The position numbers and the translations under genes are program-made. This document shows, one piece after another, positions 3,075-62,520 of a DNA stretch of 64,000 nt. The notes beneath the pieces are model-generated. The model was not told the origin of the DNA. It saw nothing but the letters and a program-made list of their open reading frames with translations, and ran no database searches. Each line of letters starts with the position of its first letter. The first letter of the stretch is position 1. The DNA is from a virus (lineage: Duplodnaviria; Caudoviricetes): the IMG/VR virus record IMGVR_UViG_2824317532_000001, positions 32,001 through 96,000 of that record. One strand, 5' to 3'.

Positions 3075-5597
3075 ATGCCTGACGTGGAACTCGCCCGCCG
3101 TGAAGGCGTCGAGCTGGTCCGCACCGGCAGGTTCCAAACCCTCACCGGCTCGTGGAACCCGACACCGAAAGACATTCAGGCCGCCGTCGAGGCCATGGAC
3201 TGCCCGGCGATCCGAAAGCCGGTTATCCGGCTTGGGCACACCGACGATCGGTTCGTGCCTCGCGGCGACGGGGAGCCGGCACTCGGCTGGTTCGAGAACC
3301 TGCGTGCCGCTGACGGCGGGCACACGCTGGTCGCCGACCAGGTGACGCTGCCGTGGCTGCATTCGGTTCAGGCTGCCGCCTACCCATCGCGGTCGATCGA
3401 GGGCAACTACAACCATCGCTGTTCCGAAGGCCACCTGCACCCGTTCGTCATTCACACCGTCGCCCTGCTTGGTGTAACCCCGCCCGGGGTGCAGACGCTG
3501 CGGTCGTTGAACGACCTGCCAGAGATGCTCGGGGTCGCCGCAACCGGTGAGGTACCCGAGGGTGCCGAGCATGTGCAGGTGACGGTCCTGGCGGGCCGGC
3601 ACTCGTTCGACGAGTCGAAACATGCCCGCGACGACGACGGCAAGTTCACGTCCGGGTCCGGTGGCGGCGGTGGTGACGGATCGCCTGTTCAGCCTGCCCC
3701 AGCCTCCGGGCTGAAACGCAATGAGCGGCTCGCGAAACGCATCCCTCTCGGCAAGGGCGAAACGTATGTCGGCAGCGGCACCGTCCGTGACGGCGGGTTC
3801 GCGGTCGCCGCCGTGGACGGCCCGGACGGGCGCACCGTCCGGCTCGGTGTCGGCATCGACCCCGACGAGATCGGCCAGTGGTCCGGCGCCAACCGGGGCG
3901 GAACGGTCGTCCTCGACCAGGAACGTCTCGACCAAACCCGCGAGGCGATCGCCCAGCTCCTCGAAGCGGCAAAGACCGGAAAAGCCAAGGTCCGTGCCCT
4001 GCATAAGGAATGGGACCGGCTCGAAGCGGCCGAGAACAAACTCTTTGGCAAGTCGTCGATGTCGGAGTCCGACGAGAACAAGTTGGACGAGATCCGGGAA
4101 CAGCGGAAAGCCAACGAGGACGCGCTGGACAAGCTCGCCGACTTCGGTGTCCTCGAAGAGGGCGTGATTCACGCCGAGTGGGGTGACCTGCACCTGCAGG
4201 CGTACATGTCCGACGACAGCCCGCAGTTCAAGGTCGAGGTGAAAGCGAGCCGGGAAGCGCCGTCCCGGTTCGACGAGATCCTCGAAGTGCGACACCTGAC
4301 CAGGCTCGCAGCCCTACTGGAGAAGGCGGGCGCCGCGAAACCGGTGCAGGCCGCCGCCGCGCAGGTTCAGGCCGCCGCCGAGGTGCACACGGGCGCGATG
4401 GTGGCGCTCATCCCCACGCCCGAGGACGCGGCACGGCTGGCGGTCGAGGGCGGGGAACCGGCCGAGGAACTGCACGTCACGCTCGCTTACCTCGGTGAGG
4501 CTGCTGCCCTCGGCGCCCGCGGCAGGCAGGACGTCATCGACGGCGTCTCCACCGCAGCCAACGGTCTCCCCCAGTTCGAGGCCGAAGCGTTCGCGTTGAA
4601 CGTCTTCAACCCGCCGGGTGCGCAACGCGACGACGGCCAAGATCGGGACACCTGTCTGGTGCTCGGCTTGTCCGGGGACCCCATCGACGCCGTCCACGAC
4701 CTGGTGGCCGAAGCGCTACGTGAGGCGTTGTGGTCGATCGACGTCCCGCCGCAGCATCGCCCGTGGCACGCGCATATGACCTTGGAGTACACCGAGGATC
4801 TGTCGAAGCTGGCCAACCTGGTCGACCGGATCGGGCCGGTCCGGTTCGACCGGATCCGCGTGGCGTTCGGCGGCGAGCACATCGACATCCCGCTGATCGG
4901 CCCAGACGAAGACGACATGGTCGCGGCGAGTGCCGCGATCCGTGGCCGGATCCCGCCGATCCGGGAACGCCTGGCCCGGCTGGTGGCCGCGGCTGCACCC
5001 GCCGATCCCCCGCCGGAAGACCCGGCATCCAGTCTCCCGGCCGCCGAGCCGGAGCCCAACAAACAAGAGGAGGACCTCGTGTCCCTGAGCGATGAACTGC
5101 GCTCGCGGCTCGGCCTCGCCGACGGCGCCGAGGAGGTCGACGCTCTGGCGGCGATCGACGCGCTGAAGGCGGCGGCCGAGAAGAGCCCCGAGCCGACGGC
5201 GGAGATGATCCAGGCTTCGGCCAACGCGACGGCGAAGGCCGAGCAGGCGGAGGCGGAGAAGGACGAACTCCGCAAGGAGGTCAACGTCCTGGCTTCCCGC
5301 ATGGAGCAGGTCACCACCGAACTCGCGGCGGCGAAGGCCGAGCAGGCGGCAACGGTGAAGGCTTCCGTGCTGGATGACGCCATCAAGCAGGGCAAGATCA
5401 AGCCCGCGGACAAGGCGCAGTGGGAAACCGACTACGACGACGCCCCAGCCGCGATCACCCGGGTTCTCGCTTCCATCGCCCCCGGCACTGCGGTTCCCGT
5501 GATGGCGGCCGGGCACGCCGGGCCGGCCGAACCGACCAGCGGCGACAGCCTGGACGCCGAGTACGAGCGCCTCTTCGGCGAGAAGGCTGGTGCCTGA
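3075..5597 (+). CDS. Capsid maturation protease/scaffold polyprotein with internal 2H phosphoesterase domain
   Basis: N-term PVIRLGH/PALGW/YPSRSIE protease-like motifs; HVT (~4473) and HMT (~4773); C-term coiled coil plus AIKQGKIKPA scaffold motif. Confidence 0.82.
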   Translation: MPDVELARREGVELVRTGRFQTLTGSWNPTPKDIQAAVEAMDCPAIRKPVIRLGHTDDRFVPRGDGEPALGWFENLRAADGGHTLVADQVTLPWLHSVQAAAYPSRSIEGNYNHRCSEGHLHPFVIHTVALLGVTPPGVQTLRSLNDLPEMLGVAATGEVPEGAEHVQVTVLAGRHSFDESKHARDDDGKFTSGSGGGGGDGSPVQPAPASGLKRNERLAKRIPLGKGETYVGSGTVRDGGFAVAAVDGPDGRTVRLGVGIDPDEIGQWSGANRGGTVVLDQERLDQTREAIAQLLEAAKTGKAKVRALHKEWDRLEAAENKLFGKSSMSESDENKLDEIREQRKANEDALDKLADFGVLEEGVIHAEWGDLHLQAYMSDDSPQFKVEVKASREAPSRFDEILEVRHLTRLAALLEKAGAAKPVQAAAAQVQAAAEVHTGAMVALIPTPEDAARLAVEGGEPAEELHVTLAYLGEAAALGARGRQDVIDGVSTAANGLPQFEAEAFALNVFNPPGAQRDDGQDRDTCLVLGLSGDPIDAVHDLVAEALREALWSIDVPPQHRPWHAHMTLEYTEDLSKLANLVDRIGPVRFDRIRVAFGGEHIDIPLIGPDEDDMVAASAAIRGRIPPIRERLARLVAAAAPADPPPEDPASSLPAAEPEPNKQEEDLVSLSDELRSRLGLADGAEEVDALAAIDALKAAAEKSPEPTAEMIQASANATAKAEQAEAEKDELRKEVNVLASRMEQVTTELAAAKAEQAATVKASVLDDAIKQGKIKPADKAQWETDYDDAPAAITRVLASIAPGTAVPVMAAGHAGPAEPTSGDSLDAEYERLFGEKAGA
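5079..5597 (+). CDS. Nested in-frame scaffolding protein
   Basis: AGGAGG SD just upstream of in-frame GTG 5079; analogous to Mu I/Z and lambda C/Nu3. Confidence 0.6.
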   Translation: MSLSDELRSRLGLADGAEEVDALAAIDALKAAAEKSPEPTAEMIQASANATAKAEQAEAEKDELRKEVNVLASRMEQVTTELAAAKAEQAATVKASVLDDAIKQGKIKPADKAQWETDYDDAPAAITRVLASIAPGTAVPVMAAGHAGPAEPTSGDSLDAEYERLFGEKAGA

Positions 5598-14044: not shown

Positions 14045-14587
14045 TTACTGCGGATAGCTCATCTCCAGCCGCGCATGGTTGGCGTCGAGGCACCAGTCAC
14101 AGTTGCACCCAGCGATGCGGTAGATCGCGTCCTCCCACTCCTCCTTCCACTCGTGCCCAATGATGCAGCGATAGCGGATCGTGAGGTTGCCTTCGGCCCA
14201 TTCCATCCGTGTTGGCAGGTGCCCACGGTGCTTGCCGGTGACCGCGTAAGCGCACTTCCAGCACGAACCGCTGAAATGGGCTGGGTCAGTAGGTGGCCCG
14301 ATCACGACGGCGGCGAGTCTCCGCTTGTCGGAGTTGTAAGTGATGTTGTGAACCGGACGCTCGGTGACAATCGCGGACTTCTCGGCGGCCTCGACCTCCT
14401 TGCGGGTGTCGAAGTGCTCCACCTTGACCGTCATAACGTCCCGCCACCAGCCTTTGAGCTTGGCGTGGTCATACCAGCGGATTCCGGGGTCGCCGGTGAT
14501 GCCGATGTAGAGCAGGGCATCAGAGGCGTCGTAGAAGCGATAAAGCGTCTGATCCTGGTCGGCATCTTCTTGTGCAACGATGGTCAC
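14045..14587 (-). CDS. GIY-YIG nuclease family protein
   Basis: LYRFYD..LLYIGIT...R...EKSAIVTERPVHN; C-terminal Cys cluster. Confidence 0.85.
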   Translation of the reverse strand: MTIVAQEDADQDQTLYRFYDASDALLYIGITGDPGIRWYDHAKLKGWWRDVMTVKVEHFDTRKEVEAAEKSAIVTERPVHNITYNSDKRRLAAVVIGPPTDPAHFSGSCWKCAYAVTGKHRGHLPTRMEWAEGNLTIRYRCIIGHEWKEEWEDAIYRIAGCNCDWCLDANHARLEMSYPQ

Positions 14588-23254: not shown

Positions 23255-23860
23255 ATGGGAGATCGTACCTGTCCCGTCGAGACCGACGGCAAGGCATGCG
23301 GCAAACCGTCCGCGCCGAAGGATTCCCGCCTATGGTGCTCGATGCACCGCAACCGGTGGTACAGGCACGGCGACGTGCACTACCTCGGCAAGCACGGCCT
23401 CGCCAAGACGGCAACTCCGGAGCAGCGCTTCTGGGCGAAGGTGGACGCCGACGGTGACTGCTGGGTCTGGACGGGCGCGATTGGGACCCACGGTTACGGA
23501 ATGTTCCGGAACGAGCATGGCAAGGCGGTTACTGCGCATCGTTACTCGTACGAGTCTTTGATTGGTCCCATTCCAGACGGACTCACCATCGACCATCTGT
23601 GTCGCAACCGCCCATGCATCAATCCGGATCACCTGGAACCTGTGACGCAGGCTGAAAACAACCGCCGCGTCCCCGTTGAAGTGCGTCGCCTCAGCGCGCG
23701 GGTGCCGAGGCCGCCGCGTACGACTTGCAAACACGGGCATCCGTTGTCGGGCGAAAATCTCTACGTGTCTCCCGGTGGCCACCGGGCCTGCCGAACCTGC
23801 GCCAAACGACGCGTCCTGGAGTTCTGCGCCCGAAAGCGGAATCAAGCGCAAGCAGCCTAG
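23255..23860 (+). CDS. HNH endonuclease
   Basis: RFWAKVD..CWVWTG..AHRYSYE..IDHLCRNRPCINPDHLEPVT..EN; own TAGAAT -10 at ~23180. Confidence 0.92.
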   Translation: MGDRTCPVETDGKACGKPSAPKDSRLWCSMHRNRWYRHGDVHYLGKHGLAKTATPEQRFWAKVDADGDCWVWTGAIGTHGYGMFRNEHGKAVTAHRYSYESLIGPIPDGLTIDHLCRNRPCINPDHLEPVTQAENNRRVPVEVRRLSARVPRPPRTTCKHGHPLSGENLYVSPGGHRACRTCAKRRVLEFCARKRNQAQAA

Positions 23861-31815: not shown

Positions 31816-32225
31816 GGCTGGCCGTCCGGGGCAGGGTACGCAATGCGCAGGCCTGGCACTTCAAGGGCGATCCGGGCGACGACTGCCCGGTGCCACGAGG
31901 CCGGGAACTCGACCTCAGGGTGGGCTGCGTGGTACTCGTGGTCGTTGCGGTACACCAGCACGCCCGGGTCGGGAATGCCGACGAGTTTCTCGACACATCC
32001 GCCGATGAACTCGCCGGTACGCCGCTCTATATCCTCCATGGCCAGTCGCACCCCGTCGGGGATCGGGTATTTTCCCTGCTCCCAGTGGCGCACGGTGCGG
32101 GCCGAGACTCCGAGGTGGCCGGCGAGCCAGTCGCCGGTGAGGCCGAGGTGTTCGCGGACGACCCGGAACTCCGCATCGGTCATGCGCTCGTCTTCCGGCA
32201 TGCCGGGCGGGTCGGTGTACTCCAC
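31812..32225 (-). CDS. XRE HTH regulator, DUF1870/Aca2-like
   Basis: MTDAEFRVVREHLGLT..LAGHLGVSARTVRHWEQGKYPIPDGV...WHRAVVARI. Confidence 0.75.
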   Translation of the reverse strand: MEYTDPPGMPEDERMTDAEFRVVREHLGLTGDWLAGHLGVSARTVRHWEQGKYPIPDGVRLAMEDIERRTGEFIGGCVEKLVGIPDPGVLVYRNDHEYHAAHPEVEFPASWHRAVVARIALEVPGLRIAYPAPDGQP

Positions 32226-33999: not shown

Positions 34000-36351
34000 T
34001 CACGCCATCACCTCGTCCAGCACACCGATCTGCTCGGCCCCGGACTCGGTCAGCCAATAGCCGCCACGGCCATCGGTGTCGAGGATCTGCTCCCCCGCCA
34101 GCTTGTTGACCGCGTTGGTGCAGGCCCGAGTCTTGATGACGGATCGGACAGCGGCAGCCAGGTCGCCGAACTGGACCGGGTCGCGGTCGCCGTCGAGCCA
34201 CCGGTCGGCGAAGAACCGGAGTACCGCCTCCCGGCCGCCCGCGGGCGGGGTGGTGTCGCCGGGTGCGGAGTCCAGCAGGTTCGACGGGATTCCCGCACCG
34301 AGGATCTCGGCCGGGTCCATGTTGTCGAACGCTTCGAGCCGCTTCCACCGGTCCGCGTATAGCGGGCCTGCCGCTCCGAGCACGGCCGTTTCCAGGCTGA
34401 CGGTGTCACCCCTGGTCATGACGTCCCACAGGTCGCCGGCGTAATCCGATCGCATCCGCATGCGGGCGGTCGCCGAGTTGTAGCCGACCCCTGCAGCGGT
34501 GGTGCCGTCCTCCCATTCGGCCGGCAGGGCGGACGGGTCGCCGGGCATCTTCCCGCCGGGCCAGGCGGCGGGGCCGGTGAGCCGGTCGGCGGTGCGGAAC
34601 ACGGTGACGACGCCGGAGGCGAGCTGGGCGCGCAGCACACTGTCTTTGAGTTCGGACAGCAGCGGTGACTGCACCAACAGCCGCACCTTCACGTTGGCCT
34701 TACGCCCGGACTTGGCGAGCAGCGCCAACAGTTTGACGATCTCCTTGCCGACGTCGGGGTCGTTCATCGGCAGGTGCGCCTCGTCGATGGTGATCGACAG
34801 CAGGGGGAAGTCCGGGGAGACCTCCACGTATTTGACGCGCCGCTGCACCACTGTCCCGTCGGGCCGGGTCTCGGTGACCCGCATCCGTGTGATCAGCAGG
34901 TTGCGGGCGAGCATCACCGTCACGGCGGTGCGCAGCATGACGAGGATTTCCTCGTTCGTCGGCGCGAACCAGTCGACACCGTCGCGCACGTCACCGAGAG
35001 ACTGGCCCATCTGCGGGTCGCCGACCCACGACACCACCCGCCCGGACTTGCGTTCCAGGGCGAGGAGCAGGTTGACGTATTCGCTCTTGCCGGATCCGGT
35101 GCAGCCGGCGATGAGTTCCATGAGGGCGCCCCAGCCGGGCCGCCAGAACGGGTGCCGTCCGCGGTTGCCGTCTTCGAGGGTCATGGTTTCGGCGGTGCCA
35201 GTGGTGAGGTCGATGCCGTCGCCGTTCCAGCGGCTGCCGGTCGAGAGTGGGCTGGTCCGCTGGACGAGGATCATGGCCCGGTTCGCGTCGAGGGGATCCG
35301 CGATGATCGACACCATGGAGGTGCCGACCGAGTAGGCGCGGGCGATCTTCCGGACCGGTTCGGGCATGTCGAACTTCTCGGGATCCAGGTCCGAGTCGTC
35401 GTGCGCCACGATGATCGCCGACCAGCCACCGACCGACGCCTGAATGTTCTCGAGGCTGGTGCCGTGCAGCACCCGACCCTTCGCGGACACCTTCTCCCAG
35501 CGGGCGAGCACGTACTCGCGCAGCAGGTCTTCCTCGCTGGGCTGCGGCGTGTCGTCGTACAGGTCGTCCTCGTCGTCGAGCGGCACAGGCGGGCGGAGTG
35601 CCTGGGCGCGCCGGTCAGCCAGCCACCGCCGGTACGGGCGGGAGCCGACCACCCCGAGCCCGAACAACGCGGTGAGCGCGACTGCCGCATGGTCAGCGAA
35701 GCCGATCACGTCGGTTAGTTCGATCCACAGTCCGGCCGCTGCCGCCAGGTAGCCGGCGCCGCGCGCGCGGCGGGCAATGGTGTCACGGGTGAGTTCCTCG
35801 TCCGTCTCGGCCTGCCGGCGTAGCCAGGCACGGGTCATCCACCAGGACCCGGCCACGATGGCGGGGATCGCCGCGAACTGAGCGACCTCTCCCGCCAGTG
35901 ACAGGTCAGCGACGTCCGCCGCCACACCCGCCATCCCCACAAGGCTGGTAGCGGCGGCACTGTTCACAGACCCCGTGTGATCCCGGTACAGGCGCCCCCA
36001 CGGAATGGAGATGCGCCGGTCGCTGGTCTTGTGAAGGCGTACCCCGCAGATACCGCACAGCGGGCGTTCGATCTTCGACTTGGCGGAGAACCACTGCCCG
36101 CTGTCCGGGCACTCGGGGCACTCCCATTCCACGTGGGTGACCTCGCCGCTGTCGTTGACCGGCACCGGCTGCCGCCGTGCTTTCACGGTCTGCCCGTTCG
36201 GGCCGGCGTGGTGCCAGGAGAACGACACAGCGCCGGACGGCAGCAGCAGCTTGCCGTCCAGGTCACGCGACGCCTGACGGGCACGGCCCTGCTGCGGTGC
36301 GCCCGGAGGTCCGCCGTTCGGTAGCGGCACGGGCCGGTTCTCGGTCTTCAC
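34000..36351 (-). CDS. FtsK/SpoIIIE-family conjugative DNA translocase (TraB-like)
   Basis: TM block, Walker A IAGCTGSGKS, Walker B ITIDEAH, SGRKANV..Q, LRAQL, C-terminal wHTH-like; N-terminal CxxC pairs. Confidence 0.85.
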   Translation of the reverse strand: MKTENRPVPLPNGGPPGAPQQGRARQASRDLDGKLLLPSGAVSFSWHHAGPNGQTVKARRQPVPVNDSGEVTHVEWECPECPDSGQWFSAKSKIERPLCGICGVRLHKTSDRRISIPWGRLYRDHTGSVNSAAATSLVGMAGVAADVADLSLAGEVAQFAAIPAIVAGSWWMTRAWLRRQAETDEELTRDTIARRARGAGYLAAAAGLWIELTDVIGFADHAAVALTALFGLGVVGSRPYRRWLADRRAQALRPPVPLDDEDDLYDDTPQPSEEDLLREYVLARWEKVSAKGRVLHGTSLENIQASVGGWSAIIVAHDDSDLDPEKFDMPEPVRKIARAYSVGTSMVSIIADPLDANRAMILVQRTSPLSTGSRWNGDGIDLTTGTAETMTLEDGNRGRHPFWRPGWGALMELIAGCTGSGKSEYVNLLLALERKSGRVVSWVGDPQMGQSLGDVRDGVDWFAPTNEEILVMLRTAVTVMLARNLLITRMRVTETRPDGTVVQRRVKYVEVSPDFPLLSITIDEAHLPMNDPDVGKEIVKLLALLAKSGRKANVKVRLLVQSPLLSELKDSVLRAQLASGVVTVFRTADRLTGPAAWPGGKMPGDPSALPAEWEDGTTAAGVGYNSATARMRMRSDYAGDLWDVMTRGDTVSLETAVLGAAGPLYADRWKRLEAFDNMDPAEILGAGIPSNLLDSAPGDTTPPAGGREAVLRFFADRWLDGDRDPVQFGDLAAAVRSVIKTRACTNAVNKLAGEQILDTDGRGGYWLTESGAEQIGVLDEVMA

Positions 36352-36450
36352 GGAAAAACTCCAGGTGTGGTCGGGGTGGTGGTGCCGGGCTGGTGCCGCA
36401 ACCGCCAAACCAACAGAGGGTTCGGCGATCACGGGTGGAGTCCGGCAGGG

Positions 36451-41620: not shown

Positions 41621-43468
41621 ATGACGGTCCCCCACCAGGACCAGCGCCACAAGACCCGTAACGGGCATCCCGCCGCCGCCCAGTCGCCTGGACCCGGCAA
41701 TCTCGCCGCGTTGCGGGTTCACGAGCAGACGGTTCTGGGCTGGCTCCTGTCGCCGGCCAACCATGCCGAGGCGGAGGAGCGAGTTCGCGACCTCAGCATC
41801 CGGCATCTTGTTGAGCCTGCCCACCGCGAGATCTTCGGCAGCATCCTGGCGCATGTCGGTGCCCCGAATCTGGCGCTGCTTGTCACCGCAGACCTGGCGA
41901 CGGCGGATGCTCACCGTTCGGTGAAGGCGCTGCCAGGTGGGATTGCCGCATACCTGTCCGACTGCAAGGACTACGCCGACCTTTACGGCACACGGGAGTT
42001 CGCTTTCCACGTGCGGCAGGTGAAGGACGCCTACGTGCGCCGGCGGCGGCTGGAGCTCCACTCTCAGGCCGCGCGGGCTCTCGAGGAGGACAACCTCCAG
42101 GCGTACGACGCCGCGTTGGCGAACATGCAGCATCTCGACGCGGATGCGGAACCTGCTGAGGATCCCGGAAGCGCACGCGACCGGGCACTGCAGCGGGCCA
42201 TCGGCGATGCGGCTGCTGGTCGGTATTTGGCGATGCTGGCGGAGGAGATTCTTCGAACCCGGGCGCGGCGCGAGGCCCGCCAGTTCGTGGACGCCGAACT
42301 GGCTGACGTGTCACCGCTCGAGTTGCCCGTCTCGCTGACTGATCTTCTCGGCGAGGACGATGAACAGGACTCGTGGCGGATGTCCGGGTTGTGGCCGTCC
42401 GGTGCTCGGATCTTGTTGGCCGCGGGCGCGAAGTCGGGCAAGACGACGACGGTGGGGAACGTGGTGCGTTGCCTGGCCGACGGTGACCGGTTTCTGGGGA
42501 TCGCCGACGTCGAGCCGGTGGCGCCGGGCCGGACTGTGGCGGTGCTGGATTACGAGATGCCCCGTGCGAAGGTGAGGGGCTGGTTACGTGACCAGCGGAT
42601 CCGGAACACCGATGCGGTGCTGGTGTGGACGGAGCGAGGCAGGGCGGGGCGCTTTGATACTCGCGATCGGGCGGCACGAGTGCTGTGGGTGGAGCGTTTA
42701 CGGACGGCGAACGTGTCGGTGTGGGTCATCGACTGCCTGTCGCCGGTGCTGTCGGCGTTGGGTATCGATGAGAACAACAACACCGAGGTCGGTGCTGTTC
42801 TCGACGGGATCAACACGATCGCTGCTGAGGCCGGCATTGATGATGTCCTGCTGATTCATCACATGGGGCATGGGGCGGAGCGGTCTCGTGGCGCGTCGCG
42901 GTTGATTGGCTGGCCGGATGTGAATTGGAAGTTGACTCGGCAGCGGGATGAGAAGGATCCGTCGGCGGAGCCGGATCCGAATGCGACCCGGTATTTCTCG
43001 GCGTACGGCCGGGATGTGGATGTTCGTGAGGGTCGGTTGGTGTTCGAGTCGGAGTCGCGGCATCTGACGTACATGGAGGGCGGCCGGAAGCAGGACGATG
43101 ACACGGTCGCGCTGGGCAAGTTGTTGGTGTTTGTGCGGGATCATCCTGGGCTCGGGACTCGTGGCTTGCAGGAGGGCGCTGCGGCGCTGCTGGGGAGCAG
43201 GGATACGGTGCGGAAGGCGTTGAAGGCGGCGACGGCCAAGGGTTACGTCGTTGCGGCGGATGCTCCGCGTAACGGCTTGCAGCACACGATCTCGGCGTTG
43301 GGCCGGGGACAGATCTTGGCGTTGTCGTCGGTTCCGGTGAGTGACGCGGAGTTCCTTGCCGGTCCGCGGGGGAACGTGGTGTGCGACTGCGGCTACTACA
43401 TCACTTCGGCGGCGTTCGAGGCTGGCGCTCGGTCGTGCATCGAGTGTTTGAAGGCGGTGCCGGCGTGA
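41621..43468 (+). CDS. Replication helicase: DnaB-N-like plus RecA-family (AAA_25/RepA) domain
   Basis: EQTVLG..L, PAHREIF; AGAKSGKTT; VIDCL; LLIHH..RSRGAS; C-terminal CDC..CIEC. Confidence 0.85.
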   Translation: MTVPHQDQRHKTRNGHPAAAQSPGPGNLAALRVHEQTVLGWLLSPANHAEAEERVRDLSIRHLVEPAHREIFGSILAHVGAPNLALLVTADLATADAHRSVKALPGGIAAYLSDCKDYADLYGTREFAFHVRQVKDAYVRRRRLELHSQAARALEEDNLQAYDAALANMQHLDADAEPAEDPGSARDRALQRAIGDAAAGRYLAMLAEEILRTRARREARQFVDAELADVSPLELPVSLTDLLGEDDEQDSWRMSGLWPSGARILLAAGAKSGKTTTVGNVVRCLADGDRFLGIADVEPVAPGRTVAVLDYEMPRAKVRGWLRDQRIRNTDAVLVWTERGRAGRFDTRDRAARVLWVERLRTANVSVWVIDCLSPVLSALGIDENNNTEVGAVLDGINTIAAEAGIDDVLLIHHMGHGAERSRGASRLIGWPDVNWKLTRQRDEKDPSAEPDPNATRYFSAYGRDVDVREGRLVFESESRHLTYMEGGRKQDDDTVALGKLLVFVRDHPGLGTRGLQEGAAALLGSRDTVRKALKAATAKGYVVAADAPRNGLQHTISALGRGQILALSSVPVSDAEFLAGPRGNVVCDCGYYITSAAFEAGARSCIECLKAVPA

Positions 43469-44937: not shown

Positions 44938-45288
44938 GTGACTTCCCGGGCAGCACCGTCTACGGCGTGGCAGAGCAGGCCAGGCCGACGTGCGCTCGTC
45001 GCCGCCAACCTGAGCGTGCTGCGGGGGCCGACGTCGGGAACTGTCGTCCTACCGAACCGGCTGGTGTGGGCGCCGGATCCGGCGGGCCGTTTCGACCTGG
45101 ACGACCCTTTCGACCGGTTGCGGGTGTACGAGATTGTGCTCCGTGAGGCGGTTCAGGAAGCCGAGCTGCGTACGTGGCTAAACGGCACGCTGCTGACCGC
45201 ATTGTGGCCACACCTGTACCTGCCTCGTGGTGTACGGCAGGCGTGGGAGACCAGCCACCCGCAGTTGGCGGCCGTACCAGCACAGTGA
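44938..45288 (+). CDS. Putative antitoxin upstream of AbiEii
   Basis: LRGPTSGTVVLP..L.W, YEIVLREA, LWPHLYLP..VRQAWE; GTGA-coupled to toxin. Confidence 0.7.
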   Translation: MTSRAAPSTAWQSRPGRRALVAANLSVLRGPTSGTVVLPNRLVWAPDPAGRFDLDDPFDRLRVYEIVLREAVQEAELRTWLNGTLLTALWPHLYLPRGVRQAWETSHPQLAAVPAQ

Positions 45289-45938
45289 CGATCGAATCCG
45301 TAGACGCCTTCCATCTACAGGTTGCCCGGACCGCGCTGGCAGTCGCCAACCGGTACGGGTTCGCGCTCGGCGGCGGTCTGGCGCTGATCCTGCACGGCAT
45401 CGTGTCCCGGCCGACCGAGGACGTCGACGTGTTCGGTGAGGAGGGCTGCAGCGTGGTCGGCGCCGCGGCCGCGGTGACGGCGGCCCTGCAGGATGCGGGC
45501 ATCCGGGTCGAGCCGGTGGACATGAGTTCGGAGGTCGTTGACCTCGACTATCTGATGGCCGAACTGGTCGCCTACCGGCCCGATGGTCGGGCGGTGCGGT
45601 TGAGTTTCGGTCATCTGTCCCGCACCCGGCAGCCTGTGCTGTTGGACATCGGCCCGGTGATGGCCGTTGACGACCTGATCGCGTGGAAGGTCGCCGCGCT
45701 GGTAAACAGGGCTGAGGTTCGTGACTTCGTGGATGTGGCGGCGTTCCTCGCCGACCGGTCCCCCAGCACGCTGTTGGCGTTGGCGCGGACGGTCGATCCG
45801 GGCCTGTTCGAGGAAGATGTTGCTGCGGCGGGACGCAGGCTGGATCAGACTCCGGATCGGGCGTTCGCCGCCTACGGGCTCGACGCCCGCCAGGTGGCGC
45901 AGATGCGGGCCCGCTTCCATGACTGGCCTCGCAGCTAG
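45285..45938 (+). CDS. AbiEii/AbiGii-family nucleotidyltransferase toxin
   Basis: FALGGGLAL..HG..SRPTEDVDVF; K..AL..R...RDFVDV. Confidence 0.88.
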   Translation: MTIESVDAFHLQVARTALAVANRYGFALGGGLALILHGIVSRPTEDVDVFGEEGCSVVGAAAAVTAALQDAGIRVEPVDMSSEVVDLDYLMAELVAYRPDGRAVRLSFGHLSRTRQPVLLDIGPVMAVDDLIAWKVAALVNRAEVRDFVDVAAFLADRSPSTLLALARTVDPGLFEEDVAAAGRRLDQTPDRAFAAYGLDARQVAQMRARFHDWPRS

Positions 45939-46850: not shown

Positions 46851-47393
46851 TCAGTGCTGCGAGGTGGCAGCCTCCCTGTTCGCAGCTGCGATAGCGAGCG
46901 CCCGCCAACGCAGAGCTTGCTCCACCTCCGGCTCGTCCTCGACGAGCTCGTACCGCACCGGCCGGCCCTGCTCGTCGTGGTACATCACCATGAGGCGCTG
47001 ATCGTCGAACAGCCACCAATCTTGAGGGCCGATCGCCGGAATGATGCCCTCCGCCTCGGCGACACTGCGAGTCAGGTACTGCACCGTTTCACCGGATTCA
47101 CGGTTCCAGCGGTCCATCCACCGCATCCACTGCTGGTAGTCGGTAGGTGGCGTGTCGACGACCCGAACTCGGCCGATCGTTTTGCCGCTCGAGGTCTGCT
47201 GCCGCACCTGGGCCATCCACTCCCCGAGCTCCTTGTTCTCGGTCGGCGGGATCGGCCGCCCTGCCAGCCACGCCTGCCACTGATCCTGCTCGTAGGTCAC
47301 GTCGTACGCGGCCTGCTGTTCCCACCGCCAGGCAGACCGTTGGTAGCCGGCGAGTTGGGCCCAGAATTCGTCGTTGGTGATAGTGCGGCGCAC
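46851..47393 (-). CDS. DUF6879-like protein
   Basis: SAWRWE, GRVRVVDTPPTDYQQW, DWWLFDD. Confidence 0.8.
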   Translation of the reverse strand: MRRTITNDEFWAQLAGYQRSAWRWEQQAAYDVTYEQDQWQAWLAGRPIPPTENKELGEWMAQVRQQTSSGKTIGRVRVVDTPPTDYQQWMRWMDRWNRESGETVQYLTRSVAEAEGIIPAIGPQDWWLFDDQRLMVMYHDEQGRPVRYELVEDEPEVEQALRWRALAIAAANREAATSQH

Positions 47394-47402
47394 AGCGATC
47401 TC

Positions 47403-48245
47403 CTAGGCGGGAAGGTGATTGATGGCGTCGAGGATGAGGTGGCGGGCGTCTTCGCCGGTGACGGCGTCCTGCCAGTAGCGAGCGAACAGGGCTTCGAGGA
47501 TCTCCACCTTGTCCGCCAAATGTTCCTCGTCGGTGACGGCGGTTTCGATACATGCCTCGTCGTCGAAGATTTCGAACGATGATTCGGTGTTGCTGTTTAC
47601 CGGCCGGGACAGGGACGGGTAGATGGCGAGGGTGACGTTGTCGAGGCCGATGGCGGAGCTGAGGTGGAACAGTTGGGCTCGCATGATTGAGGTCGGGAAT
47701 CGGCGTCGCCGGAGCACGGGCTCGTCGATGAGGAACGTGAACTGCTTGTCGGGGTCGGTGAGGAAGCGAACCGACTCCTGCCGTTTGCGGACGGCGGCGG
47801 CCACGTCGTTGACGCTGCCATGTTTGTCGTGGTGCTCCTGCAGGATGGCCCGCATGTAGTCGGGGGTTTGCAGGTAGCGCGGGATGAACGTCATCTCGAA
47901 GAACGTGAACCGCTTGGTGCGGGCTGCGCGTTTGGTGTAGTCGTCCTGGATGGGCTCCTGGCCATGGGCTGCGCGTTTGCTGTAGGTGTCGCGGCTGGCT
48001 TCGGCTTCGGCGGCCATGTGGATGAGTTGGTCGCGGAGGCGTTCGTTCATGCCGGTGGCCTGCGCCCAGGCGGTGATTTCGTCGGCGGTGGGGATCTGTC
48101 GGCCGCGTTCGATCTTGGAGACCTTGAACTTGCCGGTGCTGGCTGCCCAGCCGAGCATCTCGGCGAGTTCGGTGCCGGTGAATCGTGCGTTTTCGCGGGC
48201 GGCTTTGAGCCTGCCGCCGATGGGGTCACGTTCTTCGGTGGTCAT
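47403..48245 (-). CDS. XRE HTH + DUF5753 regulator
   Basis: KVSKIERGRQIPT; IPRYLQTPDY, FLIDEPVL, AVTGEDAR. Confidence 0.88.
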   Translation of the reverse strand: MTTEERDPIGGRLKAARENARFTGTELAEMLGWAASTGKFKVSKIERGRQIPTADEITAWAQATGMNERLRDQLIHMAAEAEASRDTYSKRAAHGQEPIQDDYTKRAARTKRFTFFEMTFIPRYLQTPDYMRAILQEHHDKHGSVNDVAAAVRKRQESVRFLTDPDKQFTFLIDEPVLRRRRFPTSIMRAQLFHLSSAIGLDNVTLAIYPSLSRPVNSNTESSFEIFDDEACIETAVTDEEHLADKVEILEALFARYWQDAVTGEDARHLILDAINHLPA

Positions 48246-57192: not shown

Positions 57193-57708
57193 ACCATGGG
57201 ACATGACGATCGACTGGAACTAATGGCGGCGGACCACGACCGGTTCCGGGCCGCACTGGTGCAGATCATTCTGGTGGCGGATGGTGGGGCCGAGGCGCCG
57301 CACACCGCGCTGGAGAACATTCGGGCCGAGGCCAACAAGGCGCTCGCCGAGGCGGGTGCGCAGTGACCGCCACGATGACGCCGCCCGCGTCCACCACGAT
57401 GCCGCAGTCGCAGGATCCGCGGGTGTTGCGGGAGATCCTGGACGACCCGAACCTGTCCGGCTGGCACGAGGCCGCCCATCTCGCGCTGGAGGACCTGGAG
57501 CAGCGGATCGGCCGGCACGTCCGCCACGGGCTAGGTGCCTGATGGGCGACGAGACGCCTGCTCTGACGGTGGTCGGCATGGGTCTGTTCCCGCTGCCGGG
57601 TGAGAAGAAGCGGCGTCAGCGGGCGGTTGCGGAGGCTCGGGAGCTTCTCCGCCAAGTGGCGGAGATCGAGCAGCGGAGTAGCGGGCACACGAGAGTTGAG
57701 GGTGAGCA

Positions 57709-57915
57709 GTGACCGGCGAGCCGCAGGAGACGTACTACGTCGAGTATCCGTGTGGGAAGTACTGCAAGGTCGAGATCGATCTGGCGGAGGCTCACGGCGG
57801 GTTCACGCACCGGCAGATGCGTGCCGCGGCGGACGTCCAGCATGCGGAGCGGCACGAGTTGGAGTCGACGCCGGTGCTGGCCCGGGTTTCTGCGGAGTTC
57901 CGGGCTCCGGCGTAG
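57709..57915 (+). CDS. Hypothetical protein
   Basis: GTGA coupling; CGKYC. Confidence 0.5.
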   Translation: MTGEPQETYYVEYPCGKYCKVEIDLAEAHGGFTHRQMRAAADVQHAERHELESTPVLARVSAEFRAPA

Positions 57916-57947
57916 GCTCACCCCACCCGTGTGATCTTGGAGGCGTC

Positions 57948-58424
57948 ATGCAGTTGGTCGACGTACTGGACCTGCTCCAACGGCTGTTCGTTGCCGCGCA
58001 GCATCCGGACGTTGCCGACGTGCGCCTCTACGGGGAAGGCACCCCGCAGTCGCCGGCCGGGGTTGCGGTGAAGGACACGCGGGGCGGTTCCACCTACCTG
58101 TGGGGCACCACCTGGCGGGGCGAAACCCCGGTCGACCTGCCGGAGGTGCTGCCGCCGCCGAAGCTCGGCGCCCAGCGGATCGCCGTGCTGGCGGTCAAGC
58201 TGCTCGATGCTGCCCGCCCGGCCGAGTTGAAGGCGTGGCGTTTGGTCGCGCTGCCGGATCTCGGCCCGACGGATGCTCGTGGTGTCGCGCCGGCCGGGGT
58301 CGGCCTGGTCGCCGCGGACGGCAGCCGGTTCCTGTTGCGGGCGACGCATGGTGGTTCGCAGACCGGTGACCCTGCCGAGGATCCGCACCCGGAGTGGCGG
58401 GTGCCGGAAGCACTGGCCATCTGA
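57948..58424 (+). CDS. Hypothetical protein
   Basis: GGAGG SD; followed by terminator. Confidence 0.6.
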   Translation: MQLVDVLDLLQRLFVAAQHPDVADVRLYGEGTPQSPAGVAVKDTRGGSTYLWGTTWRGETPVDLPEVLPPPKLGAQRIAVLAVKLLDAARPAELKAWRLVALPDLGPTDARGVAPAGVGLVAADGSRFLLRATHGGSQTGDPAEDPHPEWRVPEALAI

Positions 58425-58431
58425 CCTGACA

Positions 58432-58466
58432 AAAAGGCCCTGTGCTGTTACGGCACGGGGCCTTTT
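58432..58466. terminator. Bidirectional intrinsic terminator
   Basis: AAAAGGCCCTGTGC...GCACGGGGCCTTTT. Confidence 0.75.
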
Positions 58467-58576
58467 CCGCTGCTCAGCAGCGAATGTGACGCCGAATATA
58501 ACGCACATCGGGTCCGTCAGCGCCAACAGGAAGCGATCTAGCTTCGCCTCATGGAAACGATCACCCCGAGCGCCGT

Positions 58577-60631
58577 TTGAGCAGCGACCGCGACCCACGT
58601 CGACGCTTCAGTAACCGGCAACGCAACCTGCTCTACATCTCCTCCGACGGCACCTGCGAAGAATGCGGCAACCCGCTGCCGCCCGGATGGCATGCCGACC
58701 ACAAAAAGGCCCACACCCACGGCGGGGCCACCGAACTCGTCAACGGCCAAGCGCTCTGCGCTGGCTGCAACCTGCGCAAAGGAGCCCAGCCCATGGCCTA
58801 CGCCGACACATTCAAACCCCGCCCGTTCCAAGGCGAGGTCGTCAAAAGCGTCCTCGACGGTTTCTCCTCTGACCGGAAAACCACCGTCGTCCTCGCCAGC
58901 CCCGGCTCCGGCAAAACCCTCACCTACCAGGCCGTCGCCACCTACCTGTACCGGGAAGGCCTCATCGACTACGCCGCCGTGTTCGTACCCCGCCTCGTTC
59001 TTGCCCGCCAGTGCGAAGTGTCATGGCTGCACCGCCTCGACCAGCCCGAACCGAACGGCAACATCTTCGGCGGCGACCATCGGCTGTTCGACTCCCGAAG
59101 CCGTCTGTCTGCGTTCCGGCACGTCCCGAACCGGCTGCCGCTTATCCCGCCGGGTGAACGCGGCGTCGGCATGGTCACCACCTATTCGGCGTTGGTGAAG
59201 TCTCCCGACATCTACATCGACCATTGGGCCGCCAAGAACAAAGGCCGGTTCCTGCTGGTCGCCGACGAAGCCCAGTTCTGTGGAACGTCCGGCGACGACG
59301 ACGAGACCGGTGGAACCGCGGCCGGCCGGTGGATGCGGGAGATGCACGAGTACGCCGCCCACACGCTGCTGCTGACCGGAACGCCGTACCGTTCCGACGG
59401 CCAGCCGCTGATCCTCGCCGACTACGAACCGGAGGACGAGGAAGGGAAACGCAAACTCGTTCACCATGCCGAGGCCGGCTATGCCACGGGCATCGCGGAG
59501 GGCTATCTGCGGCGCTTCGAAGCGACGATGATCGACGCCCGGGTGCGGTACAAGTACGTCGACAACACCGTCAACGAGTACGACCTGTCTCTCAGTGGCG
59601 CAGACCTGCGGGAAGTCATGTGTAAGCCCGACGTGTGGAAGCCGATCGCGGACGAGGTTGTTGCCGCGGTGCGGGAGAAGCAGCGCTTGCACCGCTCGTA
59701 TCGCGGTCTGATCTCGTGCATGCAGCAGAGCGAGGCCAAGGCGGTGGAGGCGTACCTGCGTCGCCAGTACCCAGACCTCAAGGTGATGATCTCCGTTTCC
59801 GGTGATGGCGAGGAGGCCGAACGGTCGCTGCGCAACTTCAAGTCCCAGGCCGCCGACGTGCTGGTCACGGTCCGTAAGGCGTTCATCGGCTATGACTGCC
59901 CCGAGATCACGGTGGTGGGGGTGCTCACCAACTACCGCGACTGGGGGCACTTGTCGCAGTTGGTGGGCCGAGGGTTGCGCATGTGGAAGGGCGCCGAACG
60001 GCGGGGCCAGTCGTGTCGTGTGATCTGCCCCGACGACCCTGAGATGACGAGGTTCATCGAGTTCATGCGTGGCGAGTCGGAGCAGGGGCTGCGGGAGCGT
60101 GCGCGCCGTGAGGCCGACGCGGACCGGGAAGCGGGCGCAAGCCGCACCCGAGAGGACGAACTCGGCTGGGTCGAGTCGGCGCACGCTACCCAGGTCAGGG
60201 CTGTCGGTAACGATTCGGAGGTGGACGCCGATGAGTTGATGCTGATTCGGGCGATCAAGCACGACATCGACTCGGTGGAGGACGTGACGAAGCTGAAGGA
60301 GTTCGCCGAGAAGTTGGGGCTGCGACTGTCGGAGATGGCCGCCACACGCGCCGATGTTCCTGAACAGGCTCTGCCGGTGTCGACGGCGGCACCACTGACC
60401 GAGCAGGAGCAGATCAAGGCAATCAACCGGGAGACCAGTAAGGCCATCACGTCGTATCTGGCGCGGCGGGGCATGGACCCGAAGCACCCGCAGTTCCGGG
60501 CGAACGTGAAGCGGGTGACGGCGTCCGTGAACGCGGCGGCGGGCTGCTATGCCGATGACGTGTGGACCGTTGAGCAGGCGTTGAAGAGGTTGAACACGGC
60601 CCGCTCGCTGCCTGAGGAGGCGATCGTGTGA
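58577..60631 (+). CDS. HNH nuclease fused to SF2 (ResIII-like) helicase
   Basis: CEECG..WHADH..H..GG....NGQALCAGCN; PRPFQ, ASPGSGKT, VADEAQ, LTGTPYRSD, QLVGRGLR. Confidence 0.88.
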   Translation: MSSDRDPRRRFSNRQRNLLYISSDGTCEECGNPLPPGWHADHKKAHTHGGATELVNGQALCAGCNLRKGAQPMAYADTFKPRPFQGEVVKSVLDGFSSDRKTTVVLASPGSGKTLTYQAVATYLYREGLIDYAAVFVPRLVLARQCEVSWLHRLDQPEPNGNIFGGDHRLFDSRSRLSAFRHVPNRLPLIPPGERGVGMVTTYSALVKSPDIYIDHWAAKNKGRFLLVADEAQFCGTSGDDDETGGTAAGRWMREMHEYAAHTLLLTGTPYRSDGQPLILADYEPEDEEGKRKLVHHAEAGYATGIAEGYLRRFEATMIDARVRYKYVDNTVNEYDLSLSGADLREVMCKPDVWKPIADEVVAAVREKQRLHRSYRGLISCMQQSEAKAVEAYLRRQYPDLKVMISVSGDGEEAERSLRNFKSQAADVLVTVRKAFIGYDCPEITVVGVLTNYRDWGHLSQLVGRGLRMWKGAERRGQSCRVICPDDPEMTRFIEFMRGESEQGLRERARREADADREAGASRTREDELGWVESAHATQVRAVGNDSEVDADELMLIRAIKHDIDSVEDVTKLKEFAEKLGLRLSEMAATRADVPEQALPVSTAAPLTEQEQIKAINRETSKAITSYLARRGMDPKHPQFRANVKRVTASVNAAAGCYADDVWTVEQALKRLNTARSLPEEAIV

Positions 60632-61278
60632 CCGGTATGCGTGAGGTGTCGATGCCTGAACTGACCGATGAGCAGCGCCGGGTGCACCGGGCAGGGGAGG
60701 CGCTGCATCGCGATGGAGCGTCGCCGGCCGGGGCGCTGGATCTCCTTGCGGCGATTGTCGAAGACCGCACGTGGGAGCGGATGTGTGACGCGAAGGGGGT
60801 GTCGTTCGCGGGCCGGTTCCGGGACTTCGTTGAAGCGCGAAAGCCGTTTGGTCTGGGCTTCGATCCGGACCAGCTGCCGAAGGTCCTTGGCCTGCGTCAT
60901 CCCCACGAGGCGGTTCCAAAGGTTGCCTACCGCATAGCTGCAATGCGAGATCAGGTGAAGACGTTGCTCCTGTCGGAGATTCCCATTGCCTCGTCCAGGG
61001 GAGGAGATCGACGCTCTGACTACCTTCAAAACAGTGCCACTGTTTTGAAACGAGAAACAGCTGATCACATTCTTTCCAGACTCAAGTCATCCGCTCCTGA
61101 GATGGCCGCTCGCGTAATCTCGGGCGAATTGACCGCCAATGCCGCCGCGCATCAGTTGGGTTGGCGTCGCCCACGCATCGTCGTGTCTTCCCCTGAGCGG
61201 GTGGCTGAGGCGCTGCGCCGCACCATGGATCCGGACGACATCAAGCGGTTGGCCGCAATTCTCGGTGGTGATGAGTGA
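60628..61278 (+). CDS. Hypothetical protein with RGGDRRS motif and C-terminal helical domain
   Basis: GTGA-coupled to helicase. Confidence 0.75.
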   Translation: MTGMREVSMPELTDEQRRVHRAGEALHRDGASPAGALDLLAAIVEDRTWERMCDAKGVSFAGRFRDFVEARKPFGLGFDPDQLPKVLGLRHPHEAVPKVAYRIAAMRDQVKTLLLSEIPIASSRGGDRRSDYLQNSATVLKRETADHILSRLKSSAPEMAARVISGELTANAAAHQLGWRRPRIVVSSPERVAEALRRTMDPDDIKRLAAILGGDE

Positions 61279-61514
61279 CTGTGCACCGCGGCACCAGTCG
61301 CCGATACGCCTTGAATCGCCTTGAGCGCGACGCGCCGGAGTTGTATCAGCAGGTGGTGCAAAAGAAGATGACAGCGCATGCTGCCATGGTTCAGGCCGGC
61401 TTCCGCCCACCAACATTTACGGTCCGTGCGGACTCGGCGGAACAGGTGGCTGAGACCTTGAAGCGGCGCCTTCCGCCGGAGATGGTGGCCGAGCTGGCGG
61501 CGAAGCTGGCCTGA
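61275..61514 (+). CDS. Small protein paralogous to C-terminus of upstream gene
   Basis: RLERDAPELYQQVV..KMTAHAA vs RLKSSAPEMAARVI..ELTANAA. Confidence 0.75.
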   Translation: MTVHRGTSRRYALNRLERDAPELYQQVVQKKMTAHAAMVQAGFRPPTFTVRADSAEQVAETLKRRLPPEMVAELAAKLA

Positions 61515-61586
61515 GCGCAGTAGGCCCTGGGTTTCGGTCCGGGGCTCTCTGCTGCCCATTCCATGATCATGCGCTACAGTCACGTC

Positions 61587-61602
61587 TAGAACATCCGTTC
61601 GA
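61587..61602. promoter_or_regulatory. LexA (SOS) box
   Basis: TAGAAC-ATCC-GTTCGA vs actinobacterial TCGAAC-N4-GTTCGA; TACAGT -10 at 61575. Confidence 0.75.
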
Positions 61603-61677
61603 GTCGGCCCGCGAACCGGCTGGTCAACGACGTGTCGCCTCTTCCCCGGCGGCCAGCACTGGCACGGGGAGCACAGC

Positions 61678-62520
61678 ATGGCGCCATGGAACGGCGGTCT
61701 CATCGGCGACGTAGACGACGTCCACGCCGCTCTCGCACGCGTCAACCAGCAGGCCCAGACTCGCGGCACCACCGCCCTGCTGACCCAGCCGGTCACCACC
61801 GGCGACGACATCACCCCCGCCACCACCCAACTGCTGCCGTGCGATCCGCAGATCCTGCCGCTGCTGCCGTGGACCGGCCTGCGCCGCGGCACCACGATCG
61901 CGGCGGTCGGTTCGACCAGCCTGCTCATCACCCTGCTCGCCGCCGCCATGCGCGACACCGGCAGTTGGGCTGCGGTTGTCGGGAAACCCGAGTTCGGGTG
62001 CCTCGCCGCCGCAGAGGCCGGCGTGCCCCTCGACCGGCTCGCCCTCGTGCCGGAGCCCGGCCCGGACTGGCCGACCATCGTCGCCTCCCTGCTCGACGGC
62101 ATCGACCTGGTCGCCGTTCAACCTCCGCCCGGCACCAGCGACACGGTCATGAAGGCTCTGTCGGCGCGGGCCCGACAGAAAGGCGCCGTCCTCATCCCCA
62201 CTCGCGCTTGGACGGGCGCCGAAGTCGTCCTCGAGGTGACCGGCCGCCGCTGGCACGGACTCCGTGACGGCGGCGGCCGCCTCCGCGACAGCCAGATCGA
62301 CGTGCGGGCGGCCGGGCGCGGTAGGGCTGTCCGGCCGAAAACGGCCACCCTTGCTGTCGGTGACACCCGCCCGCCGATCCAGATTCCGGCGTCGCCCGTC
62401 GATGCCGGGCCGCCGCCAGCGGCGGGCAACGCCCTGTGGGAGCGTGTGGAACCGTTACCGCCGCCTGCCGACCTGTGGGCGGGCATGCGTGTCCCCGTCA
62501 CGGGCCGGCGGCTGAGTTAG
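61678..62520 (+). CDS. ImuA'-like RecA-family protein (Rv3395c-like)
   Basis: LLP..GLRRGT, GSTSLL, WAAVVG.P..G.LAAAEAG..LDRLALVPEPG, LLDGIDLV, LSARARQKGAVL. Confidence 0.82.
   Translation: MAPWNGGLIGDVDDVHAALARVNQQAQTRGTTALLTQPVTTGDDITPATTQLLPCDPQILPLLPWTGLRRGTTIAAVGSTSLLITLLAAAMRDTGSWAAVVGKPEFGCLAAAEAGVPLDRLALVPEPGPDWPTIVASLLDGIDLVAVQPPPGTSDTVMKALSARARQKGAVLIPTRAWTGAEVVLEVTGRRWHGLRDGGGRLRDSQIDVRAAGRGRAVRPKTATLAVGDTRPPIQIPASPVDAGPPPAAGNALWERVEPLPPPADLWAGMRVPVTGRRLS

Follow-up and report, generated by a model that had tools for sequence, protein, structure and literature searches.

What does a tightly coupled row of genes for a nuclease-helicase fusion and two small proteins do, and how many of these genes belong together? 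The question arises at positions 58577-61514 of a 64,000-nucleotide stretch of DNA (the window; positions 32,001 to 96,000 of the IMG/VR record IMGVR_UViG_2824317532_000001, assigned to Caudoviricetes). Three open reading frames (ORFs) on the plus strand, 58577-60631, 60628-61278 and 61275-61514, encode a 684-aa fusion of an HNH nuclease with a superfamily 2 (SF2) helicase, a 216-aa protein (p216) and a 79-aa protein (p79), and each of the two junctions is a 4-nt GTGA overlap, as the initial annotation had described. That annotation took the three genes for one undescribed defence or DNA-processing system. Our analysis delimits it differently: the conserved unit is a pair of genes, the HNH-SF2 helicase gene followed by its partner gene, and this unit is real, widespread and unnamed. 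We give roughly even odds (a probability of about 0.5) to the reading that the pair is an adaptor-guided nicking and unwinding nuclease-helicase, employed in the DNA replication or recombination of mobile elements.

The evidence for a two-gene unit is its linkage. We compared 26 other helicase loci, from phage PIS 136, one IMG/VR contig and 24 genomes. In 25 of them the helicase is followed, after no more than about 100 nt, by the start of a p216 homologue; these are the loci of PIS 136, of the IMG/VR contig and of 23 actinobacterial genomes, and the lone exception (L022) has a truncated helicase. Searching from the partner side, a 40-member partner alignment recovered 52 viral contigs with G+C contents of 0.47-0.71, of which 48 are assessable, the other four having less than 1 kb of upstream sequence. 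In 40 of these 48, a helicase core is encoded immediately upstream in the same orientation; three have a large upstream ORF that matches the HNH/N-terminal part alone, and five have no helicase match upstream, their partner having matched in the C-domain alone. The independent count is somewhat lower, since three groups of viral loci with identical match values are probably near-duplicates; L028 is also the same contig as L002. The HNH domain is encoded by a separate adjacent ORF in six loci (L042, L046, L057, L062, L070 and L079). Beyond the pair itself, the neighbourhoods have almost no gene clusters in common. Thus the gene-neighbourhood comparison upholds the co-occurrence of helicase and partner, and the third gene falls outside it: the claim of a three-gene system fails because neither the 26 other helicase loci nor the 52 viral partner loci include a p79 gene. 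In a set of 50,697 deposited phage genomes, the helicase and p216 queries (E 1e-5 and 1e-2) match PIS 136 alone, and two divergent viral helicase queries again returned PIS 136 as the sole strong near-full-length match, one of them adding two weak partial matches of 55-57 bits. Two loci show additional features: the helicase ORF of L049 (1174-4884) is about 1236 aa long with a gap in its profile match, possibly an intein or insertion, and a 714-aa ORF near the pair in L002 (11465-13609) carries a LAGLIDADG domain.

The helicase gene (58577-60631) has a clear domain content. An HNH zinc-finger nuclease domain occupies residues 27-70 (nt 58655-58786), where PF01844 scores 33.9 bits against a cut-off of 21.4 and so assigns it to the HNH superfamily, and the N-lobe of the SF2 core, which spans about residues 79-473, matches PF04851 (ResIII) with 34.2 bits against a cut-off of 22.5, making this a ResIII-type SF2 helicase. 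Helicase_C (19.8 against 23.5 bits) and DEAD stay below their cut-offs, and phrog_16 'DNA helicase' matches with E 4.8e-27. A conserved helical C-terminal extension follows at about residues 500-684. The fusion and its DEAQ box, both recognised initially, are thereby borne out, and the GSGKT and DEAQ motifs are invariant in 16 homologues, as are residues G110, K113, T114, D230, E231, Q233, T267-T269, Q461, R465 and R468; in the same alignment, C27, C30, D41, H42, N56, C61, C64 and N65 of the HNH domain are at least 90% conserved. Given this conservation of both nuclease and ATPase motifs, the protein is probably catalytically competent. The HNH domain bears a weak likeness to endonuclease VII (EndoVII; PF02945, E 0.0026; PDB 1e7d, E 0.0036). 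The family is large: a search that scored 8000 candidates returned at least 276 homologues with E values of 0.001 or below, most of them actinobacterial proteins of 600-700 aa.

The partner gene directly downstream (60628-61278) is far less familiar. None of 108 p216 homologues is informatively named; nearly all are labelled 'hypothetical protein', and one JGI entry reads 'MerR regulator'. An AlphaFold2 (AF2) model built with 30 homologues, of mean predicted local distance difference test (pLDDT) score 76.7, suggests a three-part layout: a helical N-domain at residues 14-116 (nt 60667-60975), a disordered linker at residues 121-139 with pLDDT below 50, and a five-helix C-domain at residues 145-213 (nt 61060-61266). 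The RGGDRRS motif to which attention had been drawn earlier is indeed present, at residues 123-129 within the linker. The partners come in two sizes. Seven short partners of 199-219 aa contain both the N-domain and the C-domain; the 19 long partners, which measure 422-492 aa, share the N-domain, recognised in them with E values of about 1e-32 to 1e-39, and have no C-domain. Since the N-domain occurs in both sizes, it is the constant part that travels with the helicase, and the C-terminus is exchangeable, being either the 75-aa five-helix domain or an alternative of roughly 300 aa. For the long C-terminal region, a likeness to DUF6192 clusters in the ESM Atlas alone (score 0.96), accompanied by no Pfam match at E 0.05, is a lead only.

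The small C-domain belongs to a much larger family than the pair would suggest. A profile built from seven sequences and run against 1.84 billion proteins matches 3196 cluster representatives at E 0.001 or better, 996 of them at 1e-10 or better. Among the best 146 new matches, most have the domain at the C-terminus of proteins of 180-230 aa, and a hidden Markov model (HMM) of the p216-type N-domain also matches 67 of the 146. Stand-alone forms of 73-135 aa occur as well, many of which look like truncated calls of the 200-aa family. Annotation of this family is nearly empty: Pfam on 79 C-domain proteins gave only HNH on the chimeric P0238 and one sub-cut-off TFIIS_M match (P0340), and PHROGs on 84 gave only HNH or weak matches. 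P0238 itself is a 227-aa metagenomic protein in which the HNH domain and helicase start run straight into the partner C-domain, as if a deletion had fused the two genes of the pair into a chimera. Matches in BFVD are uncharacterised phage proteins only (best E 1.4e-6), and the ESM Atlas clusters for the partner are unnamed and mostly viral. VIA-align, run wide, aligned only the N-domain of p216, to unrelated helical repeats with Z 5.9 or less, and reached at best Z 3.1 for p79; the C-domain and p216 alignments, used as profiles against PDB sequences, found nothing below E 0.18. An apparent 'NAAAG' element shared with the helicases was not borne out, as the C-domain HMM has no match in them.

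What the C-domain does have is a conserved pattern, R-L-K-R-D-x-P-x-L-x(3)-V-x(2)-G-E-L-S-x-N-A-A-A-x(3)-G-x-R, in which the stretch V..GE(L/I)S.NAAA..G.R, read from the partner alignments, resembles a helix-turn-helix (HTH). Because of this HTH-like pattern, it is plausible that the C-domain binds DNA. The likeness to ParB is weak: against ESM Atlas ParB clusters the partner reaches template modelling (TM) scores of 0.26-0.38, and against the N-domain of pNOB8 ParB a Z of 2.5, both under the bars of these tools, and no partner matched the Pfam ParB or HTH models at E values up to 0.1, 0.05 or 0.001. DUF3102 is a further weak lead for the partner, with an ESM Atlas feature score of 0.82 that is below the tool's bar.

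The third gene, p79 (61275-61514), encodes this C-domain in its entirety without anything else. The initial annotation had seen in it a repeat of the C-terminal domain of p216; the homology holds (41% identity over 69 residues between p216 residues 147-213 and p79 residues 11-79, E 2e-13, well past chance), and the idea of a copy of the neighbour's domain does not. Indeed, p79 is 58% identical to the C-terminus of PIS_094, the partner of phage PIS 136, and 45% identical to that of the L024 partner, and its best database relatives are the C-termini of 190-200-aa partners at about 60% identity; the sole close stand-alone relative is a 77-aa entry that is 99% identical. A FastTree phylogeny of 145 domain sequences places p79 in a clade of seven (support 0.89), with PIS 136 among its nearest neighbours by patristic distance. 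The p216 C-domain belongs to another clade, of about 60 members, and the midpoint root is the first node that the two share; p79 and p216 are 3.39 apart in patristic distance, against 0.75-1.2 from each to its nearest neighbours. The tree is midpoint-rooted and, the domain being short, its deep branches are weak. As the two lineages differ, p79 was not born as a regulator by duplication of its neighbour. A decaying remnant finds no support either, for p79 departs from four of 18 well-conserved columns, the same number as its clade, and no slippery heptamer is seen in the junction that would allow a -1 frameshift fusing p216 to p79. p79 stands outside the conserved module as a local, lineage-foreign, one-off add-on, most likely left behind or captured behind a p216-type partner through recombination between related cassettes. 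If it is made, p79 could confer another DNA specificity or act as a competitor for sites on the DNA.

The genomic contexts of the pair point towards the DNA metabolism of mobile elements. Pairs with short partners are found in phage early regions: in L018 the pair stands between genes for ERF and a single-stranded DNA-binding protein (SSB) and, behind it, DnaB; in L006 it follows a DUF3799 nuclease gene and precedes a phage zinc-finger gene; L013 has DUF5131 and an N6/N4 methylase, L024 a methylase (Dam) and RusA; and in PIS 136 a methylase and the DNA polymerase III epsilon subunit lie upstream and a phage-type endonuclease downstream. In three of the short-partner loci the partner is followed by a gene of one cluster, c3, that has no Pfam match (L006 9540-10877, L018 5051-6016 and L024 9585-9989), the L006 member of which contains an IscB-like HNH stretch (E 1.8e-8). 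Across 24 viral loci, a Pfam run on 134 flanking ORFs identified RecT (three loci), ERF (one), PDDEXK/DUF3799 (three) and YqaJ (one), together with Prim-Pol with AAA_25, AAA_25, PolA, RepB primase, HTH_36 (two loci), DUF1376 and methylases (three loci). Pairs with long partners reside in plasmids, elements resembling integrative and conjugative elements (ICEs) and islands, with a TrwC relaxase, ParA and ParB beside the pair in L008, DUF4192, SSB and ParB_N in L026, NUDIX and HATPase_c_2 in four loci, and TniQ and a Mu-type transposase right after the pair in L020. PLSDB holds 11 full-length matches, all from Streptomyces and including SAP1, the one plasmid whose topology was checked and which is linear; nine of the 11 are no more than 15.1 kb away from an end of their record, and merging two pairs of records that each represent one plasmid or lineage leaves seven of nine. 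On SAP1, an endonuclease VII-domain gene adjoins the pair on the opposite strand (L080 9001-12399). Over all contexts, the recurring annotated neighbours are genes for element replication, recombination and maintenance.

Taken together, these features suggest the following division of labour. The first gene would supply the motor-nuclease, in which a zinc-finger HNH domain at the N-terminus is combined with an ATP-driven helicase of the ResIII/RadD/UvrB type and a helical C-terminal extension. The translationally coupled second gene would supply an adaptor, whose conserved helical N-domain may dock onto the helicase and whose flexible Gly/Arg linker (GGDRRS) would connect it to an exchangeable C-terminal module that may bind DNA and pick the site at which the motor-nuclease acts. 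Acting for the element's own DNA metabolism, the complex could then unwind intermediates of replication or recombination, or particular sites, and nick or cleave them, and its products could be used by phage recombinases and replisomes or by plasmid replication and transfer functions. The logic would be comparable to that of a branch-migration helicase working with an EndoVII-type nuclease.

Several observations weigh against this proposal, and some of them speak for a system of defence or exclusion instead, in which the adaptor would sense or bind foreign DNA or protein and license the HNH-helicase to break down the DNA of an invader or of the host. Defence systems commonly have a nuclease together with a helicase at their core, and fusions of the two are typical there too. 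Conflict-type genes adjoin the pair at some loci, namely Mrr_cat with a DEAD helicase (L010), an AAA_21 AbiEii-type ATPase (L012) and MazG_C (L019), to which the NUDIX and HATPase_c_2 loci may be added; the window itself contains an AbiEii gene (45174-45938) and a DUF6879/HTH-DUF5753 gene pair, which lie some 10-13 kb ahead of the cassette. Around the HNH-helicase and its partner, gene content is otherwise not conserved, in the manner of a mobile cassette, and the swapping of the C-terminal module resembles the swapping of specificities. On the side of the proposal itself, some carrier phages encode a resolvase of their own (RusA in L024), beside which the pair would be superfluous in that role; a repeat search of 57900-61750 yielded only short two-copy families in and beside the cassette, with no iteron-like origin repeats; no annotated relative points to a function, p216 matches nothing in Pfam, PADLOC, PHROG or NCBIfam, and Foldseek searches of the PDB with the models of p216 and p79 produced no match at an E value of 0.001 or below; and p79, with its intact frame, its coupled start and no more departures than its clade, need not be a mere remnant. 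However, no PADLOC model fits the pair, the best, PbeA (22.7 bits) and DinG (21.2 bits), both matching partially, and no methylase or immunity-type gene is consistently linked to the pair. In phages it is surrounded by genes for recombinases, SSB and the replisome that run in the same direction, rather than occupying moron positions, and it is widespread in viral contigs, as the 40 of 48 assessable partner loci attest. Because the pair is found in replication and recombination modules of phages and in the backbones of plasmids or ICEs instead of in defence islands, DNA processing is favoured over defence, which we consider unlikely, though worth keeping in view. Of the two functions initially offered for an undescribed system, DNA processing is thus the one that the neighbourhoods favour. 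A bolder version of the conflict idea would see in the pair an adaptor-programmed nuclease-helicase of a new class, which mobile elements deploy against one another. With the N-domain as the fixed connector to the HNH-helicase, exchangeable C-terminal modules (the five-helix domain of 75 aa or the DUF6192-like region of roughly 300 aa) would direct it to different DNA sites or structures, and at this locus the free p79, foreign by ancestry, would modulate or redirect the targeting. This version strikes us as rather improbable; if true, it would show how specificity cassettes are exchanged in nature within a helicase-nuclease weapon.

Two further readings concern the third gene and the plasmids. 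The suggestion that p79 acts as a decoy or regulator of p216 within a three-gene system, for example by heterodimerising with its C-domain or by competing for its DNA site, draws on the GTGA coupling of p79, on its confident predicted fold (five helices, pLDDT 88.6), on the 14 of 18 conserved columns that it retains and on the existence of stand-alone C-domain proteins of 73-135 aa in the databases. We nevertheless regard it as quite unlikely, as a second copy occurs in just one of the 79 loci examined (the window, the 26 other helicase loci and the 52 viral partner loci, L002 and L028 being from one contig), p79 has no close stand-alone relative except the 99%-identical entry, many of the short database forms look like truncated gene calls, and p79 and p216 are of different lineages. 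A function in DNA transfer or end processing of conjugative and linear replicons, analogous to that of TtrA and acquired secondarily by phages, would account for the position of the Streptomyces matches close to record ends, for linear SAP1 and for the relaxase and transposition genes beside the pair in L008 and L020, and TtrA is itself a subtelomeric DEAD-box helicase needed for conjugation, according to two reports (PMC8743542; bioRxiv 10.1101/2024.11.13.623437). But the helicase described here is not TtrA, and the short-partner form occurs overwhelmingly within phage replication modules, so this function, too, has little probability in our view. The reading as an adaptor-guided nuclease-helicase for the DNA metabolism of mobile elements accordingly remains the one that we prefer.

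The surroundings of the cassette in the window are themselves those of mobile DNA. The cassette lies within a mobile-element region of an Actinoplanes genome (Actinoplanes campanulatus), and the window, with a G+C content of about 0.63-0.70, is a mosaic of genes from mobile elements. A phage late region extends from 29 to about 31 kb, with a terminase large-subunit C-domain, a Mu-type portal, a protease/LigT fusion, capsid, tail tube and holin. The fusion is an 840-aa protein (3075-5597, plus strand) that combines a 2'-5' RNA ligase/LigT phosphoesterase (residues 462-586) with a Mu-like prophage protease I (659-829), and ORFs resembling GIY-YIG (14045-14587, minus strand) and HNH_3 (23255-23860, plus strand) homing endonucleases are inserted among the structural genes. 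Mostly minus-strand genes follow at about 31.8-48.2 kb, among them an 810-aa protein (34000-36432, minus strand) with a weak plasmid TraB-like match of 35.6 bits and the DUF6879 (46851-47393) and HTH_31/DUF5753 (47403-48245) genes, both on the minus strand; the plus-strand exceptions encode a 615-aa AAA_25 protein (41621-43468) and the AbiEii-type nucleotidyltransferase toxin. Since a GntR/UTRA regulator also lies just beyond the window end (L003 14615-15340), genes of a conjugative element, including those for the TraB-like and AAA_25 proteins, may interleave with the phage genes. A row of small plus-strand genes, mostly encoding actinobacterial DUFs, leads from 48.9 to 58.4 kb up to the cassette. 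The plus-strand ORF ahead of the cassette stops at 58424, and right behind it a terminator-like G+C-rich hairpin (inverted repeat I1) folds within 58424-58478 with a free energy of -29.2 kcal/mol (z -4.9; none of 200 shuffles is equally stable). It is a good candidate for the terminator assumed in front of the operon, although its short T-run kept it out of the results of a consensus terminator scan. The promoter proposed for the operon found no such backing, as a consensus scan of 57500-62000 returned no sigma-70-like site. No tRNA gene lies within the window, and none of the ORFs scanned from 28 to 64 kb encodes a methyltransferase. Downstream, 164 nt past the cassette, a lone ImuA'-like gene (61678-62520, plus strand; NF058630, E 7e-49, 165.5 bits against a cut-off of 65) is followed by no imuB-sized ORF, and it does not neighbour the pair in other loci.

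The interest of the pair lies in its being common and yet without a name, as the numbers of at least 276 helicase homologues and 3196 C-domain cluster representatives convey, and in its carriage by dozens of uncultured phage contigs and by Streptomyces linear plasmids such as SAP1. Defining the partner would name two domains that lack a Pfam model, and understanding the pair would either clarify an accessory step in the DNA metabolism of actinophages and plasmids or expose a new mechanism of exclusion. An adaptor-guided HNH-helicase could also be of interest as a tool. For annotation, the lesson is that the unit comprises two genes and that the third gene at this locus is a local addition.

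How, then, does the module relate to systems already known? In PADLOC-DB v2.0.0, which covers systems described up to 2023, no system is matched, in line with the novelty initially expected: the best models for the helicase are PbeA (22.7 bits, residues 76-236) and the type IV DinG (21.2 bits), and no family matches p216, p79 or p280. Our literature searches, which covered sources other than subscription journals and supplements, returned no description of the pair, and the module is apparently undescribed. With type III restriction enzymes (Res) it shares a ResIII helicase domain and the union of nuclease and helicase in one protein. The Res nuclease, however, is a C-terminal PD-(D/E)xK domain and its gene is coupled to that of Mod, whereas the present protein has an N-terminal HNH and its adaptor lies downstream (25 of 26 loci); no Mod methyltransferase is coupled to it, and the earlier view that this is not a type III restriction-modification system therefore stands. 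TtrA is likewise an SF2 helicase of Streptomyces linear plasmids, often near their ends, and is described with HA domains in one report (bioRxiv 10.1101/2024.11.13.623437). It lacks an HNH domain, and the HA domains are absent from the present helicase according to Pfam; the identity of the two was rejected, given only 28.5 bits against the end-proximal, inward-facing 885-aa helicase of SAP1 that, by its position, is the putative TtrA of this plasmid. The best named relative of the helicase core is RadD (YejH), with an NCBIfam match of E 4.5e-9 over residues 265-473 and a PDB match (6jde) of E about 2e-4, and UvrB chains in the PDB match the core at E about 2e-4 as well. The match to RadD is partial and far from equivalence (35.1 bits against the equivalog cut-off of 720 for NF053632), and RadD itself has no HNH domain, no such C-terminal extension and no coupled partner gene. 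The closest functional analogies may be archaeal XPB-Bax1, T4 UvsW with EndoVII and eukaryotic ZRANB3, in which an SNF2 motor is combined with HNH. Compared by logic alone, these systems likewise associate a motor with a structure-cutting nuclease that deals with forks, bubbles and branched DNA; the present module differs from them in carrying its nuclease in cis, as the N-terminal part of the motor protein, and in having a separate partner that is non-catalytic and modular.

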